The notes: generated by a model not told the origin, from the letters alone. DNA of 64,000 bases from Yuukianura sp. NJ FZ-2021 (GCA_046563655.1 CM102284.1:7316001-7380000); one strand, 5' to 3'; shown: positions 7,443 to 28,324, counted from the stretch's first letter. Numbers and translations: made by a program.

Positions 7443-12630
<5,188 letters not shown>

Positions 12631-15600
12631 AACTTACAGAAAGTTAAGATTTTAATAGCAAGAATTTTAAAATTAAATAAATTTAGAAAATCCTAACCAT
12701 TATGTGTAAGCTAAATTCCGAGAAGTAAAATTTTAGTGTTGAATTTTGGAAAAGTTTTGCTGAAATTGAATGCCGAACAAAAAGTTACTGAAATCTGCAA
12801 TAGAGTTTAAATTTTATTTTTCTAGAGATATTTTATACTTCTTTTTAGGCGGCGTTTTAGTTGTAACAATTTTGTGGAATGGAATTTTTTTTCTTGATTT
12901 CTTTTAATTTTCTTTTTCTGAAATCGACTTCATATGAAAAGGCCAAATTTGTGTCTAATATTTTTCTGGAGAGATGATGCTTATACTCGTGTTGATCCTG
13001 GAATTCATCTGGACAGCATAAGGGCTAATTGAATTGCTGCGTCCAAAAGCATTTAGAACAACTTTTCCCTCTTTCGCTCTTGATTCGACTGATCAGTTCC
13101 AGTTAAACATGAAAGTAACAAATATTCTGTAGGATATTCCATGGAAAAAGATTCCTTGGAAGAAAGCATGATTCAATTTACTTGTCACATTTGATTCTTC
13201 CCCCTCCGCCTTAATTCCTTCTGCCAAACTAATGAATTTGGCTGCTCTTGGCCTAATTTGACTCGTGAGAATTGGTTAGCTTCGTCCACAGCAAAATTTA
13301 GGCAGGCAAGAGAAAGTTTTCATAAAAAAAATGTAAATGTCGCACATTTACTGTGGGAAATTTGGAATTTTTTGTAGGAAGTATTTTTCAAGTTGTGTTA
13401 ACGTTTGTATAAATTTAGAAAAACAGGGTAGAAACAATTGCTTTCGGGGTGGAGGAGGGGATGAAAGGGTTGAATTTGGTTTGGTTTGTTTGAAGCTGAC
13501 TGTAGGAGGGTAAGTAATTGAATTAGAGGCCAATGGGGTCCAACAGAGGCGGTTTCACAATGACTCCAGCTCAACATAATTGGATCTGACATGGGGAAAG
13601 TAGAAAGCAGGGAAGGAACAGCCCAGAACAACTGGACATGCGTCGCCACTTTCGCGCAGCAACTCAAAACAATAGCAGTAGCACAGGGAAAGTCTGAGAG
13701 AAAGCAATTGGAGTTCAAAACTTTGAAAAACCTCCAAAAACTTTTTTAAATTTTTTAAAATTACAATGCGATTTTTAATCTCAAGAATAACAAGGAAAGA
13801 TTGTTGACATTCAGTTTTGCAGTTGGAAGAACAAAAAATCAGAAAATTACGACTTTCAGCGTACTTTCACCGGTGGAAAAAAATCTGTTGATGAAAATAT
13901 TGAAAATCGAGGGCGTTTTCGAATCAGGTCAAAAACGGGGTCAATTTTGAGATTTTTTTTCTAGATTTTGAACAAAGGCTAGTTTGAAATTTGGAGGTTG
14001 AGGTTGACTGTAAGTGTGACCGTGACTGGAGCTGGTGTGACACGTCGTGTTGAGAGAGTCGTTAGTCGTTAGGGTGTCCGAGAGAAAGTGGGTAGTGAAA
14101 GAAGTTTGAGTGATTTAGGGTAATGGTGATTTCGGTGGGACAAGAGTCCAGTTCCTGCAAGTTTAGTTTCAACTTTTCCCTAATCTAATTGCCTTCCTAT
14201 CGAATATGACATTATATATTAGCACTTTAGCTGCCCTCCACACCAGAAAAACTTAGAACCGAGAAAAAGTTGGGCCACTCTTTTTCTGGAAGAGTCGGGC
14301 ATTTCGTGGACACTGGCTCCTTCCAGAGAATTCGAGAATGGATGGAGTGAGAGGGCTCAAATGGGCATCACCGTATTGCACTTTCTCCTCTGCCAACTTT
14401 ACTTTCACTGCCCTCCCGTCTCACTTACTTTGTCTCAAACTTTGGGAAAGTGACCTGTGTCCAGAACTGTCCAGGATCACAGGACACATAACCAAGATTT
14501 ACAGTCACCTTCCCAATGAACACTCCTCTTTTGCACATCTCCGTGACACCGGTGACCTCTGACCTTTCGCTCACAAGACTCCACACAATAAAATTCCAAT
14601 TCCGGTACAGTGTATAAATGTATAAAAAGTTCACCAGTCTTCCAGTAACCAATTTCTCACCGTACTGAATCACTTCTCTACACAAAATCATTGAAAATAA
14701 CTTAAATGTAAAGCTAATCAGTTGAACTATGAGTGTTAATCTAGTTAATCGACCAATCTAATTAACTAAAACGCTGTTACAAAACTAGCTAAATTCAGCT
14801 GTATGCTGTATTACGCGCTGTACCGCTTGGTACCGCAGCAGCATCTACCGGCTGGAAAAGGAATTTTGAAGATGTCAATTTTAGTATAGCGGTTTAAAAT
14901 TGCGAATATACAGCGTATCCTATAAGGGCAATCCCCTAAGTTCACTCAACTTTTACTTTCTTCCAGAAGAGTCCTGCTCTAGATACATTCTTGCCCTTGT
15001 TCTTTTACAATTGGAACAACGGGACTTTATCTGATTAACGGTTGATTTAATTCAATCATCGTTAAATTAGTTACAATTAACAATTGGAAGTTTAAGTAAG
15101 GTTAGGTGTGAAAGTACTGTGTGTTTTTCAGTAACTTTAGAGTGTGGGTTGGGTGACGACGGGGTGCTGCTGCATAAAGTGGAACCAAAGAAAAAACAGT
15201 TAAGAAAGTGGGCCGTTCATTCTTCTGCGAGATCCACTTTACCATGTCATCCTAGAGTTTCGAACTTGTTTGTTTTCATTAATCGAAATCACTAAACTGG
15301 GCTGGAGGACGAAGGGTTGAGTGGGTAATTGGCTTCTGTGGAGAGGAGTAATCAGTGATTACTGTTATTCCGTAGTAAAAGCTGTAACTGTGTGTGGAAT
15401 TCCACATTGGAGAGGACGTCTTTCTCTTTAGTGTTTTCTTGGAAGTGGTCCATCCGTCATCTGGGTCTTCCTGAGTAAGTTACTGTTTTTGGTCCATTAG
15501 ATGATAAGAGAATTCCGTTATAAAGTTGGGGAGTTCTAGATGTATTTACGTCAATGAAGGATAAGGAGTTTAGTTTGATCTGTGATTTCTAATGAATTGT

Positions 15601-15636
15601 TGATTTTGTTATGTTCACAGGAGATATTGACAAAGG

Positions 15637-17542
15637 ATGGTCGTTTTCCCGACGATTGGTCTGTTCAAGGAGGCTGCCCAACATCTGTCGAATCTTTGTC
15701 AAGTACGAGTAGCCTGGTTCCATTGTCACCGAGCCTCCATTACGCGAATTCATCGTCTCAAGTACCTCCGTGCCTATCCAACGCTCTTGGTCAATCCGGA
15801 CGGCTCAACGATCACTATTCGATACCACGAACCGCGAGCTATCATTCGGGTAAAGCAATTATAATGTTGTTATTCTAGAAATCATAGATCTGAACTAATC
15901 TTAGACGTCGTGATGATGCAAATTCCGGACTAGTTTATATCTGCAATCCTCACCTGCCAGTATCATTCTCAGTGCTGTTGCGATTAGGAATTTAACTGCA
16001 TTTAACCGTAATTACATAAGTAACTCCATCATTCCATTTCTAACGATTCATTCTATTTTGAACTGCTTATTCTAAGCCTATCATGTCCCGTTTTTCAAAC
16101 TTTTCCTGCATAAGTGTACCGGCGACTTGTTTTTCTCAAGTGTCTTTTATGATAACCTCTATTCGCTCATTCCCGAAGATTAAGATTCGTGTTAAATTTG
16201 GAGACGCAAATTCTAAGTTAACGATAATTAACTTGGTAGTAGTATAATAAGTTGTTTCCGTGGTCGATAGGTGTAAAAAGGCACGTAAACCTTGAAATTG
16301 AATCATGCTCTGTCTCTCATGTGATACTTCAATGATATTTTCTTCTACCAGTTTACCAGTTATGACTTATTAAGGGGATGAGTAGATTGACGTTGCGTTA
16401 TACAATAGCAATTCCGTTTTTTGTGTCCGTGTGCCATTCCAAGTTTTATTATACAAACGATTTTCGTCACACCTTCAGTCATGTACTAAGCAAACAAGGC
16501 AATTACTCAAGTTACGCATACTAGAATCATCAAGATTTTCCGTCAGGACGTGTCATTTGCTTTCAAAAGTCCAGAAAAGAAGTATTTCCAGTTCTTATTT
16601 TTATTAGTTTGACTTTGAGGTATTTCAGTAGTTCAGTAGTTGAAGCTAAACAAGGTTATCGATAGCTCGAAGTAGATTTTTGAGGAAGTTGCCTATTTGG
16701 AATCAATAGTTGCATCCGGTTTGTCATTTGGAAAAGCGGAAAACGGATTTTAGAAGAAGCGCAAGTGGGTTAACTTCTGAGAAATTGTCATAGTAGATCG
16801 AACTCCAAGAAGTCGTTAATCATTTCCGGATGAAATTGGCACACAATAGTTTAACTTTAACGAGCTTAACAAATTAAGTTCTCTACTACGTCTACAATAA
16901 CAAAGTTTTGTTGTTTACTCGTGTTTTCAACAGTTTTTTTTAGAAACTGGTTTAAAATTCGGCTGCAACGATTATATTGAGTTGACCTTATCGAACAATG
17001 TGCAAAACCTGCTGAATTTTGTGTGTAATTTTATTTACTCACGATATCGATTATTAGAAAACTGGCATGTGTTGTGTAACAAAAGGGAACGAGGCCAAAA
17101 ATCCATTGAAAAGTAAAAGTGTACACACAAGAAACAGTAAAATTGTGAAGGTTTTAAACATAACAGTAGTGGAAAAGTCTCAGGAACAGTTCTTAATACA
17201 TAAATCATTTAAGTTGCTAGCCTACTAAATTATTTAATTGAGGAGGAGCTGCTCTTGCCTTTGAGAAACTACTGGGAGTGTGTCAGAGTTATCAAAGTGT
17301 GTACGAAGTTATATAAAAGGCTAGTCATAAAATGCGATCAATTTTAGCATGGAAACTAATTGATTCTTTTTGGTTTCTTTTTATAGCTCCCTTACGACAT
17401 TACGAATTTGAGCGATTCGGAAAAGAAAATACACTTGGAGAGACGAAAACCACGAACACGGATTGCAGTCGACGCAGAAGATACTCTCAGTGTGGCCAGT
17501 TTTGATAGTCGAAAGTACATCAATCTAGTGAAGAAGAAGTAG
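15637..17542 (+). CDS. mRpL55: Mitochondrial ribosomal protein L55 (bL31m), 122 aa
   Basis: Coding exons 15637-15849 and 17387-17542 (phase 0): ...[62 protein letters not shown]... Acceptor at 15620 and donor GTAAGT at 15475 suggest an upstream UTR exon. Confidence 0.92.
16657..16664. promoter_or_regulatory. DRE-type motif TATCGATA inside the long mRpL55 intron (possible internal promoter for RAD54L2)
   Basis: Perfect TATCGATA palindrome, with a near-match TATCGATT at ~17045. DRE is an insect housekeeping core-promoter element. Function here is inferred only. Confidence 0.3.
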
Positions 17543-17697
17543 AATTGTAATTTACAAGTTCAAAGCAGTAGTTTTCAAGTTACTTTTTAGTCAAGTTTAG
17601 CAAGTAATCGGAACCCTAGATCCAGTTTCTACCCACTCACTGTCAGAAGTTCCAATTCCAGCGGGAATTCTGTTCTAAAGGAATTGGTATGTAACTG

Positions 17698-17703
17698 AAT
17701 AAA
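17698..17703 (+). terminator. AATAAA poly(A) signal for mRpL55
   Basis: First AATAAA after the stop at 17542, followed by a T/GT-rich tract (ttctgttctgttgct). Confidence 0.6.
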
Positions 17704-17856
17704 ACTTTGAATTATGTAGTACTCCTTACTTCTGTTCTGTTGCTCAACATTTATTTCAGCTTGTTTTTGTGCTCATTAATTTTCGTACTTTGTTTTTCAA
17801 TGCAGTGTGTGTTCCTCCAAAACATCATCAACCTTCGTCGTTCGCACAAACTAAGT

Positions 17857-20800
17857 ATGGAGGATCCTCCACCAATCGTTCCTTTGAAACGCTCCCGCTC
17901 CCCGTCTCCCGTGGAACTCCCTACGCCATATAAAAGAAGCAAAGTTGAAAAAGTTCCAGAAACTGAAACTGAAAAATCGTCAACCAGCCCCTTGTTTCAC
18001 TGGAGTGACAATCAAAATGATTCAAACAGCTCCAGCACCAGCGATTCCAATTCAGGTCACAGCAATGCTGAGACGGAAGAGAATACTAGAGGCCCTTCAC
18101 CAGTAAATGTTGTAGCAGTTGATTTTGATTCAGTAATCGCTGCTAGTGTGGATTCAGAAGAAGAAGATGAGGAAGTTGAAGCTGTAGATTTGAATGCAAC
18201 GATTGAATTGTCAGAAGAGTCGGAGTCTCAATCAGAATCTTCAGCTGAAGAAGAAATAGAAGTAATCAAGCAGAAAGAGAAGCCTAAACCAGAATCCAAG
18301 CGAAATCGTCGTAAAGGTGTCAACCAACGGCGCAATATCAAAGAACTCATTGGACAAGACAGTTTGGATGTTGCTACTTTGGCAGCACAAAAAGAAGAAT
18401 GGGCGAGACGAGAGCGAATGGCTGCAAAACAGAAAAGTCTTGGCATGTCCAGTCTTCCGCTGTCGATGGAACAAATCATGGAACGATTCTCCAGCGCTTC
18501 CTCGGTTGTGAGTTTAACCCACGTTGGCGGTAGTTCTGATGGAGACAAAAAGAAAACTGCGGCATCTTCATCTTCTTCTCGTGTTCAACAGCCAAAGTCC
18601 CCTGTGGAGGATGAAGTTGTGGTTCTTTCTTCGGATGAGGAAGATATTATTCCATGTTATGAATCAAAATCTACTAGTCAAAGTCAACAGATGAAGAGTA
18701 CCAAAGAAGGAGGCCCACCAGCACTTCTCCCGCTGTCGAAACTGTTTGCAACTTATGGCTCTGACTCTACTTCCAATCGATCTCGCTACAGCGGAGGAAC
18801 GATGATTATCAATCACCAAGGGGCTGATGTGAAGTTTGACGAAGACGAAATAGACGAGAGTTTGAAAAGCACAGAGGAATTGCAAGATGAGGACAGTGAC
18901 GATGACTGTATCGTGCTCAGTCCGCCACCACCGGATGCTGCTGATGAAGCAGAGAAAGACGAAGATGCTTTCAATGGTAATTGTTAAACCGAAAACTTTT
19001 AGTTTCAAAAACTTTTAGTTGAAATTTTTTATTATAGTTGGGACAATTTTTGATGCGTATAGTTCCAGATGAATTGGGCAGAGTACTGGTGAATGTTGGA
19101 CATCCAGCGGATGAGCCGGACATTTTTCTGTCACCCCAAATCGCTCGAGCTGTCAAACCACATCAGGTCAGTTTCGCGTTAAGTTTGGTACTGAATCAAT
19201 CGTTATTTGTAATACTAATGACGATTTGTTTTAGATTGGAGGGATTCGGTTCATGTACGACAATGTCGTGGAGTCGATTGAGAGATACAATAATTCTCCC
19301 GGATTTGGTTGTATTTTGGCACACTCGATGGGTCTTGGCAAAACTATTCAGGTAGTAATCAGTTCAGGAATGAAAGCGCGTTAATTTTGGTGTGAGAATC
19401 TAAACGTTTTGTTGGATCCACAGGCGGCTGCATTCTGCGACATTTTCCTAAATCATACTGGAGCAAATAAAGTACTTGTGATTGTCCCAATCAATACAAT
19501 CCAAAATTGGTTGAATGAGTTCAACTACTGGCTTCCTGGGGCAAAAGTGTGTTCAGAACCTGCAGAACCAACTCGTGCCGGAAAGAAACGCGGAAGGAAG
19601 GTCAAAACGGAAGCGGCAGTGGAAAAACTTGAAGTTGACGAATCCAGTTCACAACCGCCAGTATCACCAGCTGAAACTTCTCACTCAAGTGCTGATGACG
19701 GTGATGATGAGGCATCAAAATCAGCTCTGAAACCGGAAGAGACCTATTCAAGAAACTTTGAAATTTTTGTTCTCAATGAAACTGTGAAGAATTTGGCAGG
19801 TTCGTTAAGACTCAAACAAAGTTTTTTTGAAAAAACTTTTTTTAAGGAAAAATTGAAAATTGTTTGGAACTGTTGATTTTCGTTTGAATTTACAGCTAGA
19901 GGCAAAATAATTTCCGAGTGGTCAGAACGAAGAGGGGTTCTGCTGATTGGGTACGAAATGTATCGGATGCTGGCTCTCAAGAAACTTCGAAAGACTGGAA
20001 AACGGAAGAAGTCTTTTATTGATCTCCAACAAGAGGACAAGACTGCACTGGAGGAAGAGACAACACTGGACAAAATTTACAGCTGTCTCGTCGATCCTGG
20101 CCCAGATTTGGTCATTTGTGACGAGGGACACAAAATCAAAAACAGCGGAGCCAGTATTTCACAAGCATTGAAAGCAATTCGTACCAGACGTCGAATTGTT
20201 CTAACTGGTATGTTGCAATTTCTCATTTTTCAGTAGCCGTGTGCTAAAATCACAATCAATTCATGTTTTTGCCTTTTTTCAGGTTATCCACTTCAAAACA
20301 ACTTGATGGAGTATCATTGCATGTGTGATTTTATACGACCGAACTATTTAGGTACAACGTCTTTGATGTTTTTGAAATATTTTTTTTGAATAATTTTTTT
20401 GAAAATTGTGTCTCATGTGTTTGCAGGAACCAAAGCTGAATTTGGAAATATGTTTGAACGACCAATCATCAATGGTCAGTGTATCGACTCCACAGTGCAA
20501 GACAAACGACTCATGCAGTTTCGTTCTCACGTTTTGCATTCACTCGTCGAAGGCTTCGTGCAGCGTCGGTCTCACCTTGTTCTCCAGAGAGCTCTTCCAA
20601 GAAAAGAAGAGTGGGTGTTCCTGGTCAAGATGAGTCCAATTCAAACCCGCCTTTACAAGGAATTCATCTTGTTCATTCGACACCAAGCAGACTTGGGCAA
20701 CTCACCACCGAATCCAATCAAAGCCTTTGCCATTTGCTGCAAGATTTGGAATCACCCGGATGTCCTGTACAACGTTGTGGCTAAGAAGGAGAAAGTGAAT

Positions 20801-23800
20801 GAACAAGCAGTGCTGGAAGATCTGGAGGATTTGGCAGAAGAAGTTCAGAGTTTGAATTTGAAAAAGAAGAGAGGCGGAGGAGGTCGGAAGAGAAGCGATT
20901 TGTCCAGTAACAGCTCTGTAGCTGATGGTGTCCAGCAGGATGATGATTGGGAAGCATCAGCGCCATTACGCGGAATTGGAAAGGAGAAAGATATCAGCGA
21001 ATCAGCGCTGAGTTTTGATTGGAGCCTGGAAGCTTTCAAGGGATATGTTCCGAATGTGCTTGAAAATGGAACGAAGTTTGAACTACTGTTTACAATTATT
21101 GAAGAAACGGTGAAAGTTGGAGACAAGTTGCTGATTTTTAGTCAAAGTTTGTTGACTCTCAACTTGATGGAGATCTTTATTGGAATGAAGCTGGGATGGA
21201 TGAAGGGCAAAGAATACTTCCGATTGGACGGAAGTACGACGGGGCTGGAACGAGAACGTCTGATCAAAGAATTCAATAAGACGCCTGAAATTCATGTCTT
21301 CCTTGTGTCAACGCGTGCTGGAAGTTTGGGAATCAACTTGATTGGAGCTAATCGTGTTGTCGTTTTTGATGCTTCCTGGAATCCGTGCCATGATTGCCAA
21401 GCAGTTTGTAGGATTTATAGGTGAGAACCTTGATTTAAACTTCTACTACACATACATTTTGTATTGATGTTGCAGCATATTTGATCCGATTCTTTCGTTA
21501 TCTAGGTATGGACAAAAGAAACGCTGTCAAATTTATCGCTTCGTCACGGATTGTAGCTTGGAAAAGAAGATTTATGATCGTCAAATTACGAAACGTGGAA
21601 TGGCAAATCGGGTTGTTGACGAAATGAATCCGGATGCACACATAAGTACAAAAGATTTGAGTGGATCGCTTTTGCTGGAATTGGATGATTTGATGGCATT
21701 ACAAGATCTTAAAGTTGATCATGATGCAACTGAATTCGACGATCCGGTTGTACAACGTCTTCTTACTGTCGGCGGAGACAAGATAACAAAGGTAACGCTG
21801 AAATGTTCAAACTTAAAAAAAAGTTACCTTTTTCATTTTTTTTTGGTTTCCAGGCGCCATTTGAGCATGAATCTCTTCTGATTGATCGAAAGGAGAAGAA
21901 ATTGTCTAAAGCTGAGCGAAGACTTGCGCTAAGGAACTACGAATTGGAGAAGAAATCAACTTTGAATCAAACACTGACTCCGACTGGGCGTGTCAGTCAC
22001 GCAGCATATATGCAAAATAACTATGCAAGAACGGAATACGACGCACAAGTTAATGTTAGGACGATTGCTCCTGCTACACTGAGGCCAAGATGTAATGGTA
22101 CTACGCTGAAGGCTGGATTTAAGTCTGGATTTGCTGGAAGTCCAATATTCAGAAACGATGCTAATCTGATGAACGGAAAACAATCAGCGCAGCGATTTCC
22201 GAGACCAATGAATTCAGTATTTGGAAGAAATGATCCATTCGCAACACTTCAGCTTAAGAAAAATGGAATTTCAGCCCAAGTTATTGTGTTGAGAAAAGAT
22301 TCGTTTTTGCCTGATCCAAGTAAGAATTGACAATTCAAAAGTGAAAAATAATTTTAAACGAAACTTTTTAAAACTTCGAGTTGCTCAATTACTAATTGAT
22401 TTTAACTTGTAGGTGGAACGGCGCCGGATATTTACTTGAGGTCAGGTCAAAAAGTTTGTCTAATTCGAACCACTCGAGGAGCCTATCTGAAGTTGGACAA
22501 TGGAAAAATGGTGGCAGTACGAGATCGACTCCGCGGAGCGGCTCAAACAATACTGGACACAGTACCATCTTCGCAAGATTTGACAAAAGATCAAGCTTCG
22601 ATTATCATTCATTCCATTCTGCGGCCAAGAATTTCTTCAATTATTTCTGCCCAGCCACCGATTCCTCAGCCCAAGAGACAACTTACACGGAACAGAGTAT
22701 TTCCACAGACATTGGCACAAAAGAGCAATACAAAACCCACTGCGAAATCGTCACAGGCCGCGGCAGCACCGTCTTCAGTCGAGAAGATTCCTCCTCCGGC
22801 TGCTGCTTCATCCGCAGTATCTAAATCAGTTTCGCCAAGTTTCACTTACAATGATTTCCAGAATCAGAATCAACACAACTTGCAAATTACAAATCATCGG
22901 AACAGTTCTGGAGGAGATGTTACCATTTGGAGAAAAGACAATGCTGCCAGTAGTTCCAGTACATCAACCAGATCAGAGTCAATTTCTGGAGGATCAACAA
23001 CGGAAGAAGGTGTGCCGGATATTGAACTTATCAAGATCAATCCAAATGGAGAAAATCAAAGAATTGAACCAACACAACTGGAATCTGAACTTATGGGTAA
23101 TGCTAATACCCAGCAACCACAAGTCGATTCTGAGGTGCATGATCGTCCGCAACTTTCGCAACTTGATCCTGAGATTCACCGGAATACCCAACTCGTACAA
23201 TCGCAAATTGATCCAGAGATTCACCGGAGTACCCAACTCGTACAACTTGATTCAGAACTACAGCAGCAGCATAGGAATCCAATTCCCAACCCGCATGGGC
23301 CACTTGATTCTGATCTGCTGCGAAACCAGCAAGTACATCTTGGATCTGAATACTATCGAAACCATCACCAAGAACAACCAGACTATTACAGTTCATATCC
23401 ACCGTACATGGGAAGTGGACTGGACTCGTCACCAGCAATGTATCCGCCAGTCAACGATGTGAGTACCCTAATGGATGCTTTAGGAAGGAGTCCAATGAAT
23501 TCATCAAAATACAAAGATCAATACTATCCACCTCCACCACCACTTCCGCCAATGCCTACTCAATCATACAACTCCCTGCGTCCAAACAATTCTCAACATT
23601 ATAGGAACACTGACAGTCCGCTGGATCATCTCCGAAATACTGTTTCCCAAATACCACCAAGTTACAAGTATTCAGACGACCTTGCCATGGACTACTCGGC
23701 GTATCCTCCAGTACATTCACATTACTCGCCCAATCATCCTCAGCAGCAACCAAGAAACTCCATTCCAGAATCCTTGTACTCGAAACTCCTGCAGTCACAA

Positions 23801-24094
23801 GAGGCAATGTCAATGGTTCCACCTCCACCGTACAATCCACATCATCCAATGAGAAGCCCGGAATCGTCGATGTACGCTCCACCTTCACCATACTATGGCA
23901 GTCACAGTCACAACTTCTATGACTCTTCAGCATCGATGTATTCTAAACAGGGTTACGGTGGAATGAGCCAAGGCAACAGTTATCCATACTTCACAAACGG
24001 AGGAAGCGTCAGTGTGAATGAAAAACCGGCAAAGTCTATCTTTACTCCAGTCGAACAAGAAATACTGGATAGACATCGCAGAGAACTGCTCTGA
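17857..24094 (+). CDS. RAD54L2: Helicase ARIP4 / RAD54-like 2 (SNF2 family, ATRX-related)
   Basis: Exons 17857-18976, 19063-19166, 19235-19351, 19424-19799, 19896-20207, 20283-20351, 20427-21420, 21506-21791, 21854-22319, 22413-24094. Motifs [99 protein letters not shown]. Confidence 0.93.
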
Positions 24095-24394: not shown

Positions 24395-26001
24395 TTAACA
24401 TTTTGAGTGTTGCGATTTGGAGTGAGTTGCGTTGATGTGTTCAGTCAAATTGGCTTGACGCATGAAACGTTTTCCGCACTGGGAGCACAAAAAACGTTTT
24501 TCGCCTGCGTGGGATTTAGATTTGAGGTGACGATTGAGGTCTCCTTTGGTTACAAATTGCCAGTTACATTCTGGACAAACTTTGGTTTTGGCTCCTGCTC
24601 CTGAAATTACACATTACATGAAATCTTGATAAAAAGTAAAAAACTGCAATGCTCTCTGGTGTGACTCAATTTGCGAAAGTTACTTTTTACCTTTGTGGAT
24701 GTAAGAAGTATGCCGAATTAGATGTGCTTTTTGTTTGAAAGACTTTGGACATGAGGGACAAGGAAACTTCTTTTCATCAGTGTGGACTCGGATGTGATTT
24801 TGAAGAACATTGTTCTGCGCAAATGTTTTTGGGCAATGCGGACACCTACAGAAATCAAAAACGAGTTGAGTTCTGGAAGATGAAGGTTTTAGTTGAAGAA
24901 TTTCAATCTTACGAGTAGGGGCGTTCACCAGAATGTATTCTTGAGTGAATGATGAGAGATCGTTTTTCAGTGAAACAGGAGTGGCATACGGAACATCTGA
25001 AATAAAAAACATCATTAGCTTGCTTGGGGAGAGAATCAGAAACATTGCTTGATTGCTTACCGATAGGGTTTCAAGCCTTGATGTGAAAGTACATGACGAC
25101 GAAGATTGGAAGATGTAGCAAATCGTGACGTGCATTTGGTGCACTCGAATTTCCTTTCCCCATTATGACTATTTGACCTTAAATGAACTGAAAACATTAT
25201 TGGTTAGGTTAAGGACAAGATCATTTTAGTGTCGAGTCGATGATTAGCTTTACCGTTGAGATTCCCCCTTGTTGAAAAGGAAGAAGGGCATTGATCGCAT
25301 TTAAAAGCCTTGTTTTTATGATTTTCCTTCATGTGTAGCTTTTGGGCCTTCTCTGTATCGAAAACAGACGAACACGAAGAACACTGCCATATTTTGTTTG
25401 GCTGATGTTGTACTGGAGCCACGATATCGCTCTCCTTTTCTTGTGGCTGTGCAGCGATTGTCGAATACTGTTGATCCAGCGAAGGGGCTTCGGCAAGGTC
25501 ATGGTTATTAGGTTTTATTTCGGACAAGAATTCCGTTTCAATCTCCAGACGAATCACATCATCAAGTACTTTGTCAATCACGACATCTTCATCTTCGGCA
25601 GCTTGGCCTTGCGTGCATCCTTTGGAATCTTGAAATGAGTTACCCACTTCCAGGACTTGTTCTTGAACATGGACATCGTAAGCAGCTTGACCACTGCTAG
25701 CTCCAGGAACCGTAGCGGAGCCTTCGTCTTCAGCTGTATTTCCGGTTGGCTGACGCTGAGCGTTCCTAATAGTGACGATATTTGATTGAATCTTGACTGC
25801 AAACGTGTTCCATAGGTCAGCGGCAGGAACTTTGTCTTCATCGGACAGTTGACAAAACAATTCCCAGGCTACGTCAAGCTAAAAATTAGGAAAGCAAACG
25901 ATCAAAATTAAAGTCCAATTTAACATACTGGCAATGAATTGGTGATCAACCTGATGTCGGAAGTCACTAAATGTTGCTGTTGACAAGATGACTTGATCCA
26001 T
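24395..26001 (-). CDS. C2H2 zinc-finger protein with 8 fingers and a non-finger N-terminal region
   Basis: Exons 26001-25951, 25878-25254, 25187-25061, 24996-24913, 24845-24691, 24600-24395 join in frame. Eight CxxC...H...H fingers with linkers such as HSGERPYS, HTDEKKFP and HAGEKRFL. Confidence 0.88.
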
Positions 26002-26576
26002 ATTTCCGGAACCGCCAGCAGAAGCGGAGCATAAACACCTCAGTAATCAATTAACCAACTAATTAGTTAATCCAGCATTTTATTAACATTTTTATCATTG
26101 TTATCAGCTGTCAATTTGTAAACAAAACAATACTTTTGGTACATCTGAGCGACACTCATACTACTTACTTATACCCTCCATGAAGGGCGTTCTAAATTTA
26201 AACGCATAAACAATATCGTGTTAATTAGTTGAGAAAGTGTGACAACAATAATTCAATTAAACTTTATAATATTCTATATTTAACCAAATTACCAAACTGC
26301 AATTTAACTAATAGTCACGATAATTCATACAGTTTAGAAATTGTATGCCCATATATGGCTAGTGTGATTTGGATGCAATAAGGCCCCGTTAGAAGAACCG
26401 CAAAAATTATTTTTGAATTTTTTCCCCGCTTTAAAATTTTTCATTTTCAAACGTTCGGCCTACGTTCAACGGTCAAGTTAGTCGTTTCTTTGTTAATTAA
26501 CTTTAGTTTCGTTAATTAATTACTAAAGTTTAGGTGAAACTACAGCGCTCCAGCATATAGAGAACCAGCGTACAAC

Positions 26577-28324
26577 ATGGAACCAGTTCTGATCGTACAT
26601 GGAGGTGCTGGAGACATCATTGATGAACGTATTCCAGGCAAGTTTGATGGAATGAAAACGGCCGTACGAATTGGGTATAAAATATTGAAAGATGTCGATG
26701 ACCCAGTGACAGCCGTGGAGAGAGCAGTCAATGTCATGGAAAATTTGCCTGCATTTAATGCCGGTAAGCACCTACAGTAAGCAAGCATATTTTGGATTAT
26801 GTCAAGTTAATCCAGGCAATAAGGTTAATTTTCAATTGAAAATTATTTTTTCATTTGAGGCTATGGCAGCGTTTTGACGGAGACTGGAGAAGTGGAAATG
26901 GATGCGCTGATTATCAAGGGAACTGACCTTAGTGCTGGTGAGCCCGATTGCTTCCATTAACCAATGAATTTGGTAACTTTTGGTGAATGTCAGGGTTTAC
27001 ATGAGTCTTGAACTTGCGGACTTGGTAACTGTTATTTCAATAACAATTGCAGGAGCTGTGGGAGCTGTTCGTCACATCGCAAATCCAATTTCGTTAGCAA
27101 GACTTGTAATGGAGAAGACAAGGCATGTGTTCATTGCCGGTTCGCCTGCGGAAAAGTTTGCAGTGGATAATGGCGTGCAATTAATTCCAACCCGTTGTCT
27201 CATTCCACCGCAAAAAGCAGGGTTACCATCCAACTTGACGGAATTTACTCCACCGAAAGTGTAAGCATAAACGTCGAATTCTTTCCTGTTTACCAGTGTT
27301 TTCTGCCAGTGCCCTTCGGCTCACAGCCGTTACGCATGGTTTAATAAGTGTTACCGTTACCGCGGGCGGAGTAAGGCAGAGTCGGCGTGTGTTAAGCGCC
27401 CATATCTCATCCCATATCCCATCCAATTGTTGTTGTTCCAATGTTGCCCGATTTGGCTACGCTTGGACAGAACTTAACCAAACCTAACTTGCAACAATGC
27501 AACATCAACTATTGGATGGAATACGGGATGGGATATGAACGCTTAACACACGCCGACTCTGCCTTACTCCTGCCGTTACCGCTAACGATAACCGGTTAAC
27601 GATATTACACTGGGTTTCATATACACTCGGTCCAGTGTGACACTGGGTTTGACATCAGTATTTGTCTGCGTAGAACGACGGAAACGTATTTCGATGTGGG
27701 CACCGTTGGGGCTGTGGCAATCAACTCCAAAGGTCAAATTGCAGCAGCTACTTCAACAGGTCAGAAAAACATCAGTTCTAATCGCTTGTGTTTCAAAGTT
27801 TACTAAACTAGTTTATTCCTATGATAGGTGGTTTATCTAAGAAAATGGACGGACGAGTCGGTGACACTCCTGTGTTGGGCGCAGGAACATACGCTGACGA
27901 CCACATCGCTGGCATGTCAGCAACAGGAATAGGCGAAGCTATCGTTCGTGCCAACTTGTGTTCAAGAGTAGCACACTTGATGCAAATGGGTTGAAATTCT
28001 CGAAATTAATGTTACATTAGTCTTAAATTTTTAAATCTTTATCATGAATTTTATTTCATAGGTAAGAGCGCTACTCAGGCTGGCCTGGAAGCCGTTGAGT
28101 TCATGAGTTCCAGAATTCCTGGAAGTGCTGCAGGGGTAATCATTTTGACCCCTACCGGCGAAATCGCTTATCCTCACAATTCAAACAGAATGGCATGGGC
28201 ATGGACCAAGGGAGAAACGTTACATTTCGGAATCAACCAAACTCAAGATTTCCAGGAGCCTTTAGGCGCTGATCCAGTGCCGTTCCCTCCTCCACCCAAA
28301 CCGGATTGCGCCAATTTCAGTTAA
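26577..28324 (+). CDS. ASRGL1: Isoaspartyl peptidase / L-asparaginase (Ntn hydrolase, ASRGL1 type)
   Basis: Exons 26577-26763, 26860-26937, 27053-27260, 27674-27759, 27828-27989, 28062-28324. Motifs VHGGAG, FNAGYGSVL, EMDA, NPISLAR, autocleavage site G|TVGAVA, TSTGG, GRVGDTP. Confidence 0.93.
27374..27564. mobile_element. Fold-back MITE (191 bp) in ASRGL1 intron 3, flanked by TA
   Basis: 27368-27398 is the exact reverse complement of 27540-27570 (31 bp), and the pairing extends imperfectly to ~80 bp. TA at 27372-73 and 27565-66 flanks AGGCAG...CTGCCT termini. Confidence 0.75.

Follow-up and report, generated by a model that had tools for sequence, protein, structure and literature searches.

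A co-oriented mRpL55 and ARIP4 gene pair in springtails, with a candidate intron across the intervening poly(A) signal and probably overlapping transcripts

In the springtail Yuukianura sp. NJ FZ-2021, the gene for the mitoribosomal protein mRpL55 is followed on the same strand by a gene for the SNF2-family helicase ARIP4 (also called RAD54L2), with 314 nt between the stop codon of the first and the ATG of the second. The pair was studied in a window of 64,000 nt (GCA_046563655.1 CM102284.1:7316001-7380000), and both genes lie on its + strand. The mRpL55 coding exon 1 (15637..15849) has 71 codons, begins with ATG 15637, ends in phase 0 and is followed by GTAAAG; a coding intron of 1537 nt (15850..17386), the position of which is common to relatives, separates it from the last coding segment (17387..17542, TAG at 17540-17542). 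The 3' untranslated region (UTR) contains no ATG from 17543 to 17686, where it reaches a candidate donor, TTG/GTATGT (the slash marks the splice junction). This donor would open a 119-nt intron (17687..17805, acceptor ...caatgcag/) enclosing the mRpL55 polyadenylation (poly(A)) signal, an AATAAA at 17698..17703 that is the sole match between 17500 and 17900 to any of the 14 poly(A)-signal hexamers scanned. A second acceptor-like site ends at 17759. Beyond the candidate intron are a 51-nt ARIP4 leader (17806..17856), ATG-free and open in the ARIP4 frame, and the first ARIP4 coding exon (17857..18976, ATG 17857), which ends at a donor, ATG/GTAATT, at 18977. The ARIP4 coding span as a whole (17857..24094) has several short introns. 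The landmarks given by a first-pass annotation of this DNA (the mRpL55 exons and stop, the 17687 donor, the AATAAA, the acceptors at 17759 and 17805, and ATG 17857) are all correct, and so are its two gene identities; the acceptor at 17805 is present as it said, while its statement that the first ARIP4 exon needs an upstream exon was deduced and not observed. The arrangement suggests that the transcripts of mRpL55 and ARIP4 most likely overlap.

Both mRpL55 coding segments match the Pfam family Mitoc_L55 (PF09776), exon 1 with an E value of 2.9e-18 at profile positions 18-66 and exon 2, colinear with it, with an E value of 0.0049 at positions 69-115; the last segment also matches an Allacma model by tblastn. 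There are 255 homologues of mRpL55 at E<=1e-3, and a search of longer proteins with exon 1 returned four distant L55 proteins. Long transcript contigs were sought among the clusters of the mRpL55 homologues, which held only genome records or short contigs. The downstream gene carries the Pfam domains SNF2-rel_dom and Helicase_C, a tblastn chain links it to an Allacma protein, and the named matches among the 120 listed are nearly all ARIP4/RAD54L2, at 41-61% identity; from its domains and best named matches it is assigned to ARIP4/RAD54L2. Its N-terminal exon gave no match among proteins of 654-2000 aa. Two observations on the mRpL55 family stand apart from the pair. Protein P0127 (670 aa) matches the exon-1 query in nine stretches, its repeated copies including a degenerate L55 core motif, and looks like a tandemly amplified pseudogene-like array. 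Polypedilum vanderplanki has two mRpL55 genes (P0126 and P0275) that share a 90%-identity cluster and lie six locus tags from each other on a single chromosome-scale record.

When the mRpL55 alignment was scanned against metagenome contigs, 35 loci were found, and in 15 of them the contig continues for 1 kb or more beyond mRpL55. Two of these 15, L002 and L003, have ARIP4 immediately after mRpL55 and on its strand; among the metagenome loci they are the ones most closely related to the window (70% identity), and their stop-to-ATG distances are 397 and 277 nt. An Allacma fusca protein of 1960 aa, one among the 120 ARIP4 matches listed, has Mitoc_L55 at residues 51-115 ahead of SNF2; as a fused gene model it implies the same gene order and strand in that species, and the odd start of the protein suggests that the model arose as an artefact of ab initio prediction and not from transcripts. 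In a quick tree of ARIP4, in which the row for the window includes read-through pieces, a clade that excludes the insects unites the window and L003 with Allacma, Orchesella and two JGI proteins (SH-aLRT 100). The conservation of gene order that the first-pass annotation had proposed to look for is therefore found, in that order, strand and short spacing are kept in L002 and L003 and the fused Allacma model agrees. By the gene order of these loci, mRpL55 and ARIP4 are a tightly linked, co-oriented pair kept within the springtail (Collembola) clade. Only coding DNA aligns among the window, L002 and L003, so the three are old relatives, and no nucleotide conservation of their spacers was found by MAFFT, blastn or local alignments compared with shuffles (P 0.07-0.56). 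ARIP4 has a start motif common to all three loci (M-E, acidic residues, then PP-x-K-K/R-x-K), from which the second ATG, 17857 in the window, is taken to be the true start. A paired-type homeobox gene with an OAR-like C-terminus, the homeodomain of which we take to resemble that of SHOX, lies upstream of mRpL55 in the window (10784-12630, +) and in L003 (2571-6064, +), so that the synteny is of a three-gene block.

Between the two open reading frames (ORFs), the order donor, AATAAA, T-rich stretch, acceptor and ARIP4 ATG is found in all three DNA loci. The donor lies 144 nt after the stop in the window, 199 nt in L002 and 82 nt in L003; the AATAAA, the sole one between the ORFs, follows the donor by 11, 32 and 40 nt, respectively, and the acceptor follows the AATAAA by 107, 133 and 139 nt, leaving ARIP4 leaders of 51, 32 and 15 nt. 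Donors were scored with a matrix trained on 13 further donors in the three loci, most of them supported by protein homology and those of the 5' UTR placed by inference; the training scores were 6.1-10.1. In each locus no GT from the stop to the ARIP4 ATG scores higher than the candidate donor (6.7 in the window, 5.6 in L002 and 7.0 in L003), and sites scoring as high as the candidates occur at 0.9-2 per kb. A donor-like site close upstream of a poly(A) signal, which is the mark of a composite terminal exon (here a score of at least 5.6 and a distance of at most 45 nt from the first signal), is present in 3/3 loci adjoining ARIP4 and in 1/11 distinct mRpL55 3' ends that do not adjoin it. Three loci without a poly(A) hexamer were left out of this control, and in four of the controls more than 440 nt separate the stop from the first hexamer, which is perhaps not the real site. 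The association of the donor with ARIP4 adjacency has a Fisher exact value of 0.011, or 0.038 without the window (by hand). A strict acceptor (Y-AG after at least 12 pyrimidines in 17, sought up to 55 nt from the ARIP4 ATG) stands 15-51 nt before the ARIP4 ATG in 3/3 loci, while local shuffles yield one in 24-39% of trials per locus, or about 0.035 jointly. Together, the donor and the acceptor make it fairly probable that a real intron spans the mRpL55 poly(A) site.

The reading that leads, narrowly and with a probability of roughly 0.35, is a bicistronic read-through mRNA. The last mRpL55 exon would be a composite exon: cleavage at the AATAAA (17698) would yield a monocistronic mRpL55 mRNA, while use of the weak 5' splice site at 17687 would remove the 119-nt intron and the poly(A) signal within it, and splicing to 17806 would join the body of the mRpL55 mRNA to the first coding exon of ARIP4. 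In the window, a ribosome scanning past the mRpL55 AUG would meet no other AUG until that of ARIP4; in the relatives nothing but short ORFs would lie on its way, since the path ATGs of L002 and L003 open frames of 2-28 codons that all end before the ARIP4 ATG. Translation of ARIP4 from the joint mRNA would rely partly on leaky scanning and partly on reinitiation, and would be inefficient. We infer that the two sites are spliced, that the mRpL55 promoter drives the read-through and that the joint mRNA yields ARIP4 protein.

The spliced path between the start codons of the window is 561 nt long and has no ATG, where the + strand density of 0.0147 per nt would give about 8.2; the first-pass annotation had reported the same absence and put the expectation at about 9. 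Random 561-nt stretches of the window are without ATG at a frequency of 0.0025 (+) and 0.0015 (-), and the frequency is 0.031 for 300 nt, 0.072 for 210 nt and 0.49 for 51 nt. Contiguous ATG-free runs in the window are over-dispersed: 16 per strand reach at least 337 nt, and one on the + strand and two on the - strand reach at least 561 nt. With the protein fixed, permuting the synonymous codons of mRpL55 itself left zero ATG in 5.7% of trials, while redrawing the codons from ARIP4 usage did so in 0.6%. At each of the four at-risk codon pairs in mRpL55, the codon used is the one ending in C. An internal Met is also missing in several mRpL55 orthologues, and its absence is not unusual. The ATG depletion of the window is thus real but moderately unusual, at roughly 1e-3 to 1e-2 for a single locus. 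From 17349 to 17857, the sole three ATGs (17689, 17714 and 17800) all fall within the candidate intron; a stop codon directly follows each of the first two and the third is in the ARIP4 frame. With no competing ORF from these three ATGs, an unspliced read-through RNA would likewise be free of a competing ORF.

Several observations weigh against the bicistronic mRNA. The first-pass annotation had held that AUGs occurring freely in orthologous mRpL55 regions next to RAD54L2 would speak against its proposal, and this is essentially what the relatives have. The path equivalent to the 561-564 nt of the window, with 0 ATG, contains 4 ATGs in 612 nt in L002 and 3 in 454 nt in L003, close to expectation: the coding sequences of L002 and L003 have 2 each (2.9-3.8 expected given the protein and codon usage), and the UTR plus leader has 2 in L002 (2.8 expected) and 1 in L003 (1.9 expected). 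Orthologues that do not adjoin ARIP4 have 1-4 ATGs in a conserved region of about 290 nt, compared with 0, 2 and 2 in the window, L002 and L003. Start codons differ in strength with their context, as described by Kozak. Judged by this general rule, which may not be the springtail consensus, the mRpL55 start is in a good and not a weak context, with A at -3 in 3/3 loci and G at +4 in the window, so the leaky scanning that the first-pass annotation had invoked does not have the weak first start on its side. Since the depletion is not conserved and A occupies -3 in each of the loci, a conserved design for leaky scanning is not supported and is unlikely; the clean path of the window is either lineage-specific tuning or chance. 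Reinitiation after an ORF of about 120 codons is generally poor, and a joint mRNA in which the mRpL55 stop is 82-199 nt before an exon junction and is followed by more than 6 kb of RNA would likely be a target of nonsense-mediated decay. As for the splice sites, a position-specific acceptor matrix, which was over-fitted, did not single out the candidate acceptors, and sites with equal scores occur at 6-12 per kb. The exception among the donor controls comes from one taxon (L013-L017), where GTATGT lies 9 nt before the AATAAA with no nearby downstream gene; the motif could accordingly be an element associated with poly(A) sites and not a donor. The extension of synteny to the SHOX-like gene in L003 means that adjacency alone need not imply shared transcripts. 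The donor and acceptor, finally, would be explained equally well by an ARIP4 promoter within the mRpL55 3' UTR.

The GTATGT motif has a further likeness at the sequence level. In L013-L017 (e.g. L017 1417-1431), the poly(A) site reads GTATGT-CTGAATAAA, and the window has GTATGT-AA-CTGAATAAA, which may be a shared upstream element of poly(A) sites or a coincidence. GTATGT contains UGUA, which we take to be a site for CFIm.

In another reading, mRpL55 and ARIP4 would be ordinary, independent neighbours, with ARIP4 transcription starting in the approximately 110-150 nt between the poly(A) site and its ATG, a short unspliced leader, and the splice-like sites and ATG-free path being due to chance or related to the poly(A) site or promoter. 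A priori, independence is the most probable state of closely spaced tandem genes, and it agrees with the relatives that have no ATG depletion, with the ease with which local shuffles produce an acceptor-like sequence and with the GTATGT before the AATAAA of a taxon that has no downstream ARIP4. The CAG/T at the acceptor presumably resembles the arthropod initiator core. The SHOX-like gene, mRpL55 and ARIP4 are moreover syntenic as a whole block, and in genomic regulatory blocks the regulatory landscape of a developmental gene holds its neighbours in place. Independence nevertheless leaves three results to coincidence, namely that the donor-like site near the poly(A) signal goes with ARIP4 adjacency, that the strict acceptor recurs in all three loci and that the window has an ATG-free path at all, and on balance it is unlikely.

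The upstream end of mRpL55 bears on two further explanations, each with a different promoter for ARIP4. A putative non-coding exon 1 (15247..15474, donor TGA/GTAAGT with its G at 15475) was placed by the sequence and the distribution of ATGs, not by homology: there is no ATG over 15245-15474, compared with five (15501-15611) in the next 145 nt. That stretch is the putative 5'-UTR intron of mRpL55 (15475..15619, acceptor ...ttcacag/ ending at 15619), which was recognised by splice consensus and the same ATG distribution. The 5' end of mRpL55 in L002 is arranged alike, with CAG/GTGAGT, a short intron and an acceptor 27 nt upstream of the ATG.

ARIP4 may in the same way have a 5'-UTR intron, with a promoter that lies in the final mRpL55 exon or its 3' UTR; a brief non-coding exon would end at 17686 and be spliced to 17806, so that the mRNAs would be monocistronic and overlapping. 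This would account for the conserved donor and acceptor without translation of a second cistron, and it tolerates the ATGs that the relatives have in the mRpL55 coding sequence and proximal 3' UTR, as the start site could be downstream of them; mRpL55 itself, with its short putative 5'-UTR intron in the window and L002, offers a parallel. According to the FlyBase annotation account, a 3' UTR overlapping the 5' UTR of the next gene is a rule-bender too ordinary for special treatment or comments (PMC4528330), which also speaks for such a promoter. The 3' UTR yielded neither a promoter motif nor a conserved block, however, local alignments among the three loci being not significant, and the ATG-free mRpL55 coding sequence of the window would become mere chance (about 0.02-0.06). 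A separate ARIP4 promoter is a credible but somewhat doubtful explanation. As far as the DNA goes, what stands upstream of the intron may be the entire mRpL55 mRNA or a short first exon of ARIP4 that is initiated in the 3' UTR.

Alternatively, the two genes could share a promoter, with the ARIP4 mRNA starting at the non-coding first exon of mRpL55 and spliced from there directly to 17806, the mRpL55 coding exons being skipped. An acceptor just upstream of the ARIP4 ATG in 3/3 loci and the lack of ATGs in the putative first exon are as this would require; however, the donor beside the poly(A) signal would be unexplained, and in L003 the first exon includes the mRpL55 ATG and 11 codons, so that an N-terminal fusion product would result there. 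Such sharing is improbable. An in-frame fusion of mRpL55 coding exon 1 to ARIP4 was also considered; the leaders of 51 nt in the window and 15 nt in L003 are in frame, and it was rejected because that of L002, at 32 nt, is out of frame.

Sequence motifs in and near the mRpL55 introns may be noted here. The coding intron contains the sole TATCGATA of the window (16657) and an ATCGAT (17046), both within these 1.5 kb. ATCGATA occurs in the mRpL55 intron of L002 (about 1211) and, in L003, about 165 nt upstream of the mRpL55 ATG (about 9630). By analogy with Drosophila, these motifs may be promoter or insulator elements of the DRE type. The idea of an internal promoter, to which TATCGATA gave rise, has to be set beside the length of the corresponding intron in L003, which is 86 nt.

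The spacing between the genes also recalls the operons of C. elegans, in which about 100 nt separate the cistrons. In an arrangement of that nematode style, a polycistronic precursor would be cut at the mRpL55 poly(A) site and a spliced leader (SL) trans-spliced at the ARIP4 acceptor, and the distances from poly(A) signal to acceptor in the three loci, through T-rich sequence, fit. A conserved cis donor would then have no explanation, and we know of no spliced-leader trans-splicing in hexapods. No match to Rfam, including its SL RNAs, was found in the 79.8 kb of the window, L002 and L003, although an SL RNA gene need not lie there, and no springtail operon, polycistron or trans-splicing was named among the literature matches listed. 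An operon of this kind is highly improbable.

Other features of the window lie away from the pair. In the homeobox region, both strands of 12014-12515 have a long open frame, rich in K and V on the - strand or in L, T and F on the + strand, which suggests a tandem repeat. Downstream, ORF translations at 24395-25878 (-) resemble a C2H2 zinc-finger gene that is tail to tail with ARIP4, about 300 nt from its end, and exons at 26538-28324 (+) resemble an asparaginase/taspase-type hydrolase.

The type of arrangement proposed for mRpL55 and ARIP4 is well known in flies. By the FlyBase account, 159 gene pairs are annotated as dicistronic in release 6.04 of D. melanogaster, many of them with monocistronic transcripts as alternatives; sharing of a promoter and 5' non-coding exons is counted for 130 genes, and most of the dicistronic pairs fail the scanning requirement (PMC4528330). 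Drosophila pairs such as stoned and Adh-Adhr are likewise tandem genes for two unrelated proteins on one strand, in which monocistronic and dicistronic isoforms can coexist; the springtail pair is instead known from DNA and has an AUG-free path in one of three species. Translation of the second cistron was reportedly attributed by Wall et al. in 2005 to resumed scanning when the first cistron is without AUGs. In D. melanogaster, mRpL55 is located at 3R:91F1. No paper in the literature searched combines mRpL55 with ARIP4; mRpL55 is not mentioned among the matches listed for mRpL55 together with bicistronic or polycistronic, and in the sole paper that contains mRpL55 as well as dicistronic, the two terms occur in passages that have nothing to do with each other.

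Comparison with leaky-scanning bicistrons of green algae is less favourable and adds to the points raised above against the bicistronic mRNA. The algal pairs also have a small ORF 1 before ORF 2 and are long conserved, with AUGs under-represented upstream of ORF 2; their ORF 1 starts lie in weak contexts, and their 5' UTRs and inter-ORF spacers are short (14 nt for one native spacer) (PMC11892635). The springtail ORF 1, in contrast, has A at -3, a spacer of 277-397 nt containing a poly(A) signal and a depletion that is not conserved. The upstream-ORF bicistrons of mammals, SNURF-SNRPN and MIEF1, have a small conserved protein (mitochondrial in the case of MIEF1) before a larger ORF, but their upstream ORFs are in the 5' leader of a single unit without an intervening poly(A) site. 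Competition between splicing and polyadenylation is known from immunoglobulin mu and calcitonin/CGRP, with composite terminal exons and intronic polyadenylation. The springtail locus resembles these in having a 5' splice site just upstream of a poly(A) signal in one exon, where cleavage and splicing would be mutually exclusive; the classical choice alters the C-terminus of one protein, while the springtail choice would add a second complete ORF. The joined Su(var)3-9/eIF2gamma unit, said to have been described in holometabolous insects by Krauss and Reuter in 2000, couples a chromatin protein gene to a translation-machinery gene, and does so through shared 5' exons. Its two genes have coding exons in common and give rise to fusion N-termini, however, and an in-frame fusion would be possible in only 2/3 springtail loci.

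If there is no joint transcript, then mRpL55 and ARIP4 are routine abutting genes, and the locus is a caution that an ATG-free path of 560 nt can arise in a small, ATG-poor protein family. If there is one, the pair would represent, outside the insects proper, a conserved unit of bicistronic or overlapping type in which mitochondrial translation capacity is linked to a nuclear chromatin remodeller, and a natural case of a 5' splice site beside a poly(A) signal deciding between a one-gene and a two-gene mRNA. A stronger possibility, which seems quite unlikely, is that springtail ARIP4 has no promoter of its own and is made only from the bicistronic mRNA, after a weak splice site has removed the poly(A) site, in an arrangement kept since the deep splits of Collembola. 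The output of a chromatin remodeller would then be tied to the transcription of a mitoribosomal gene through the choice between splicing and cleavage and through inefficient downstream initiation.

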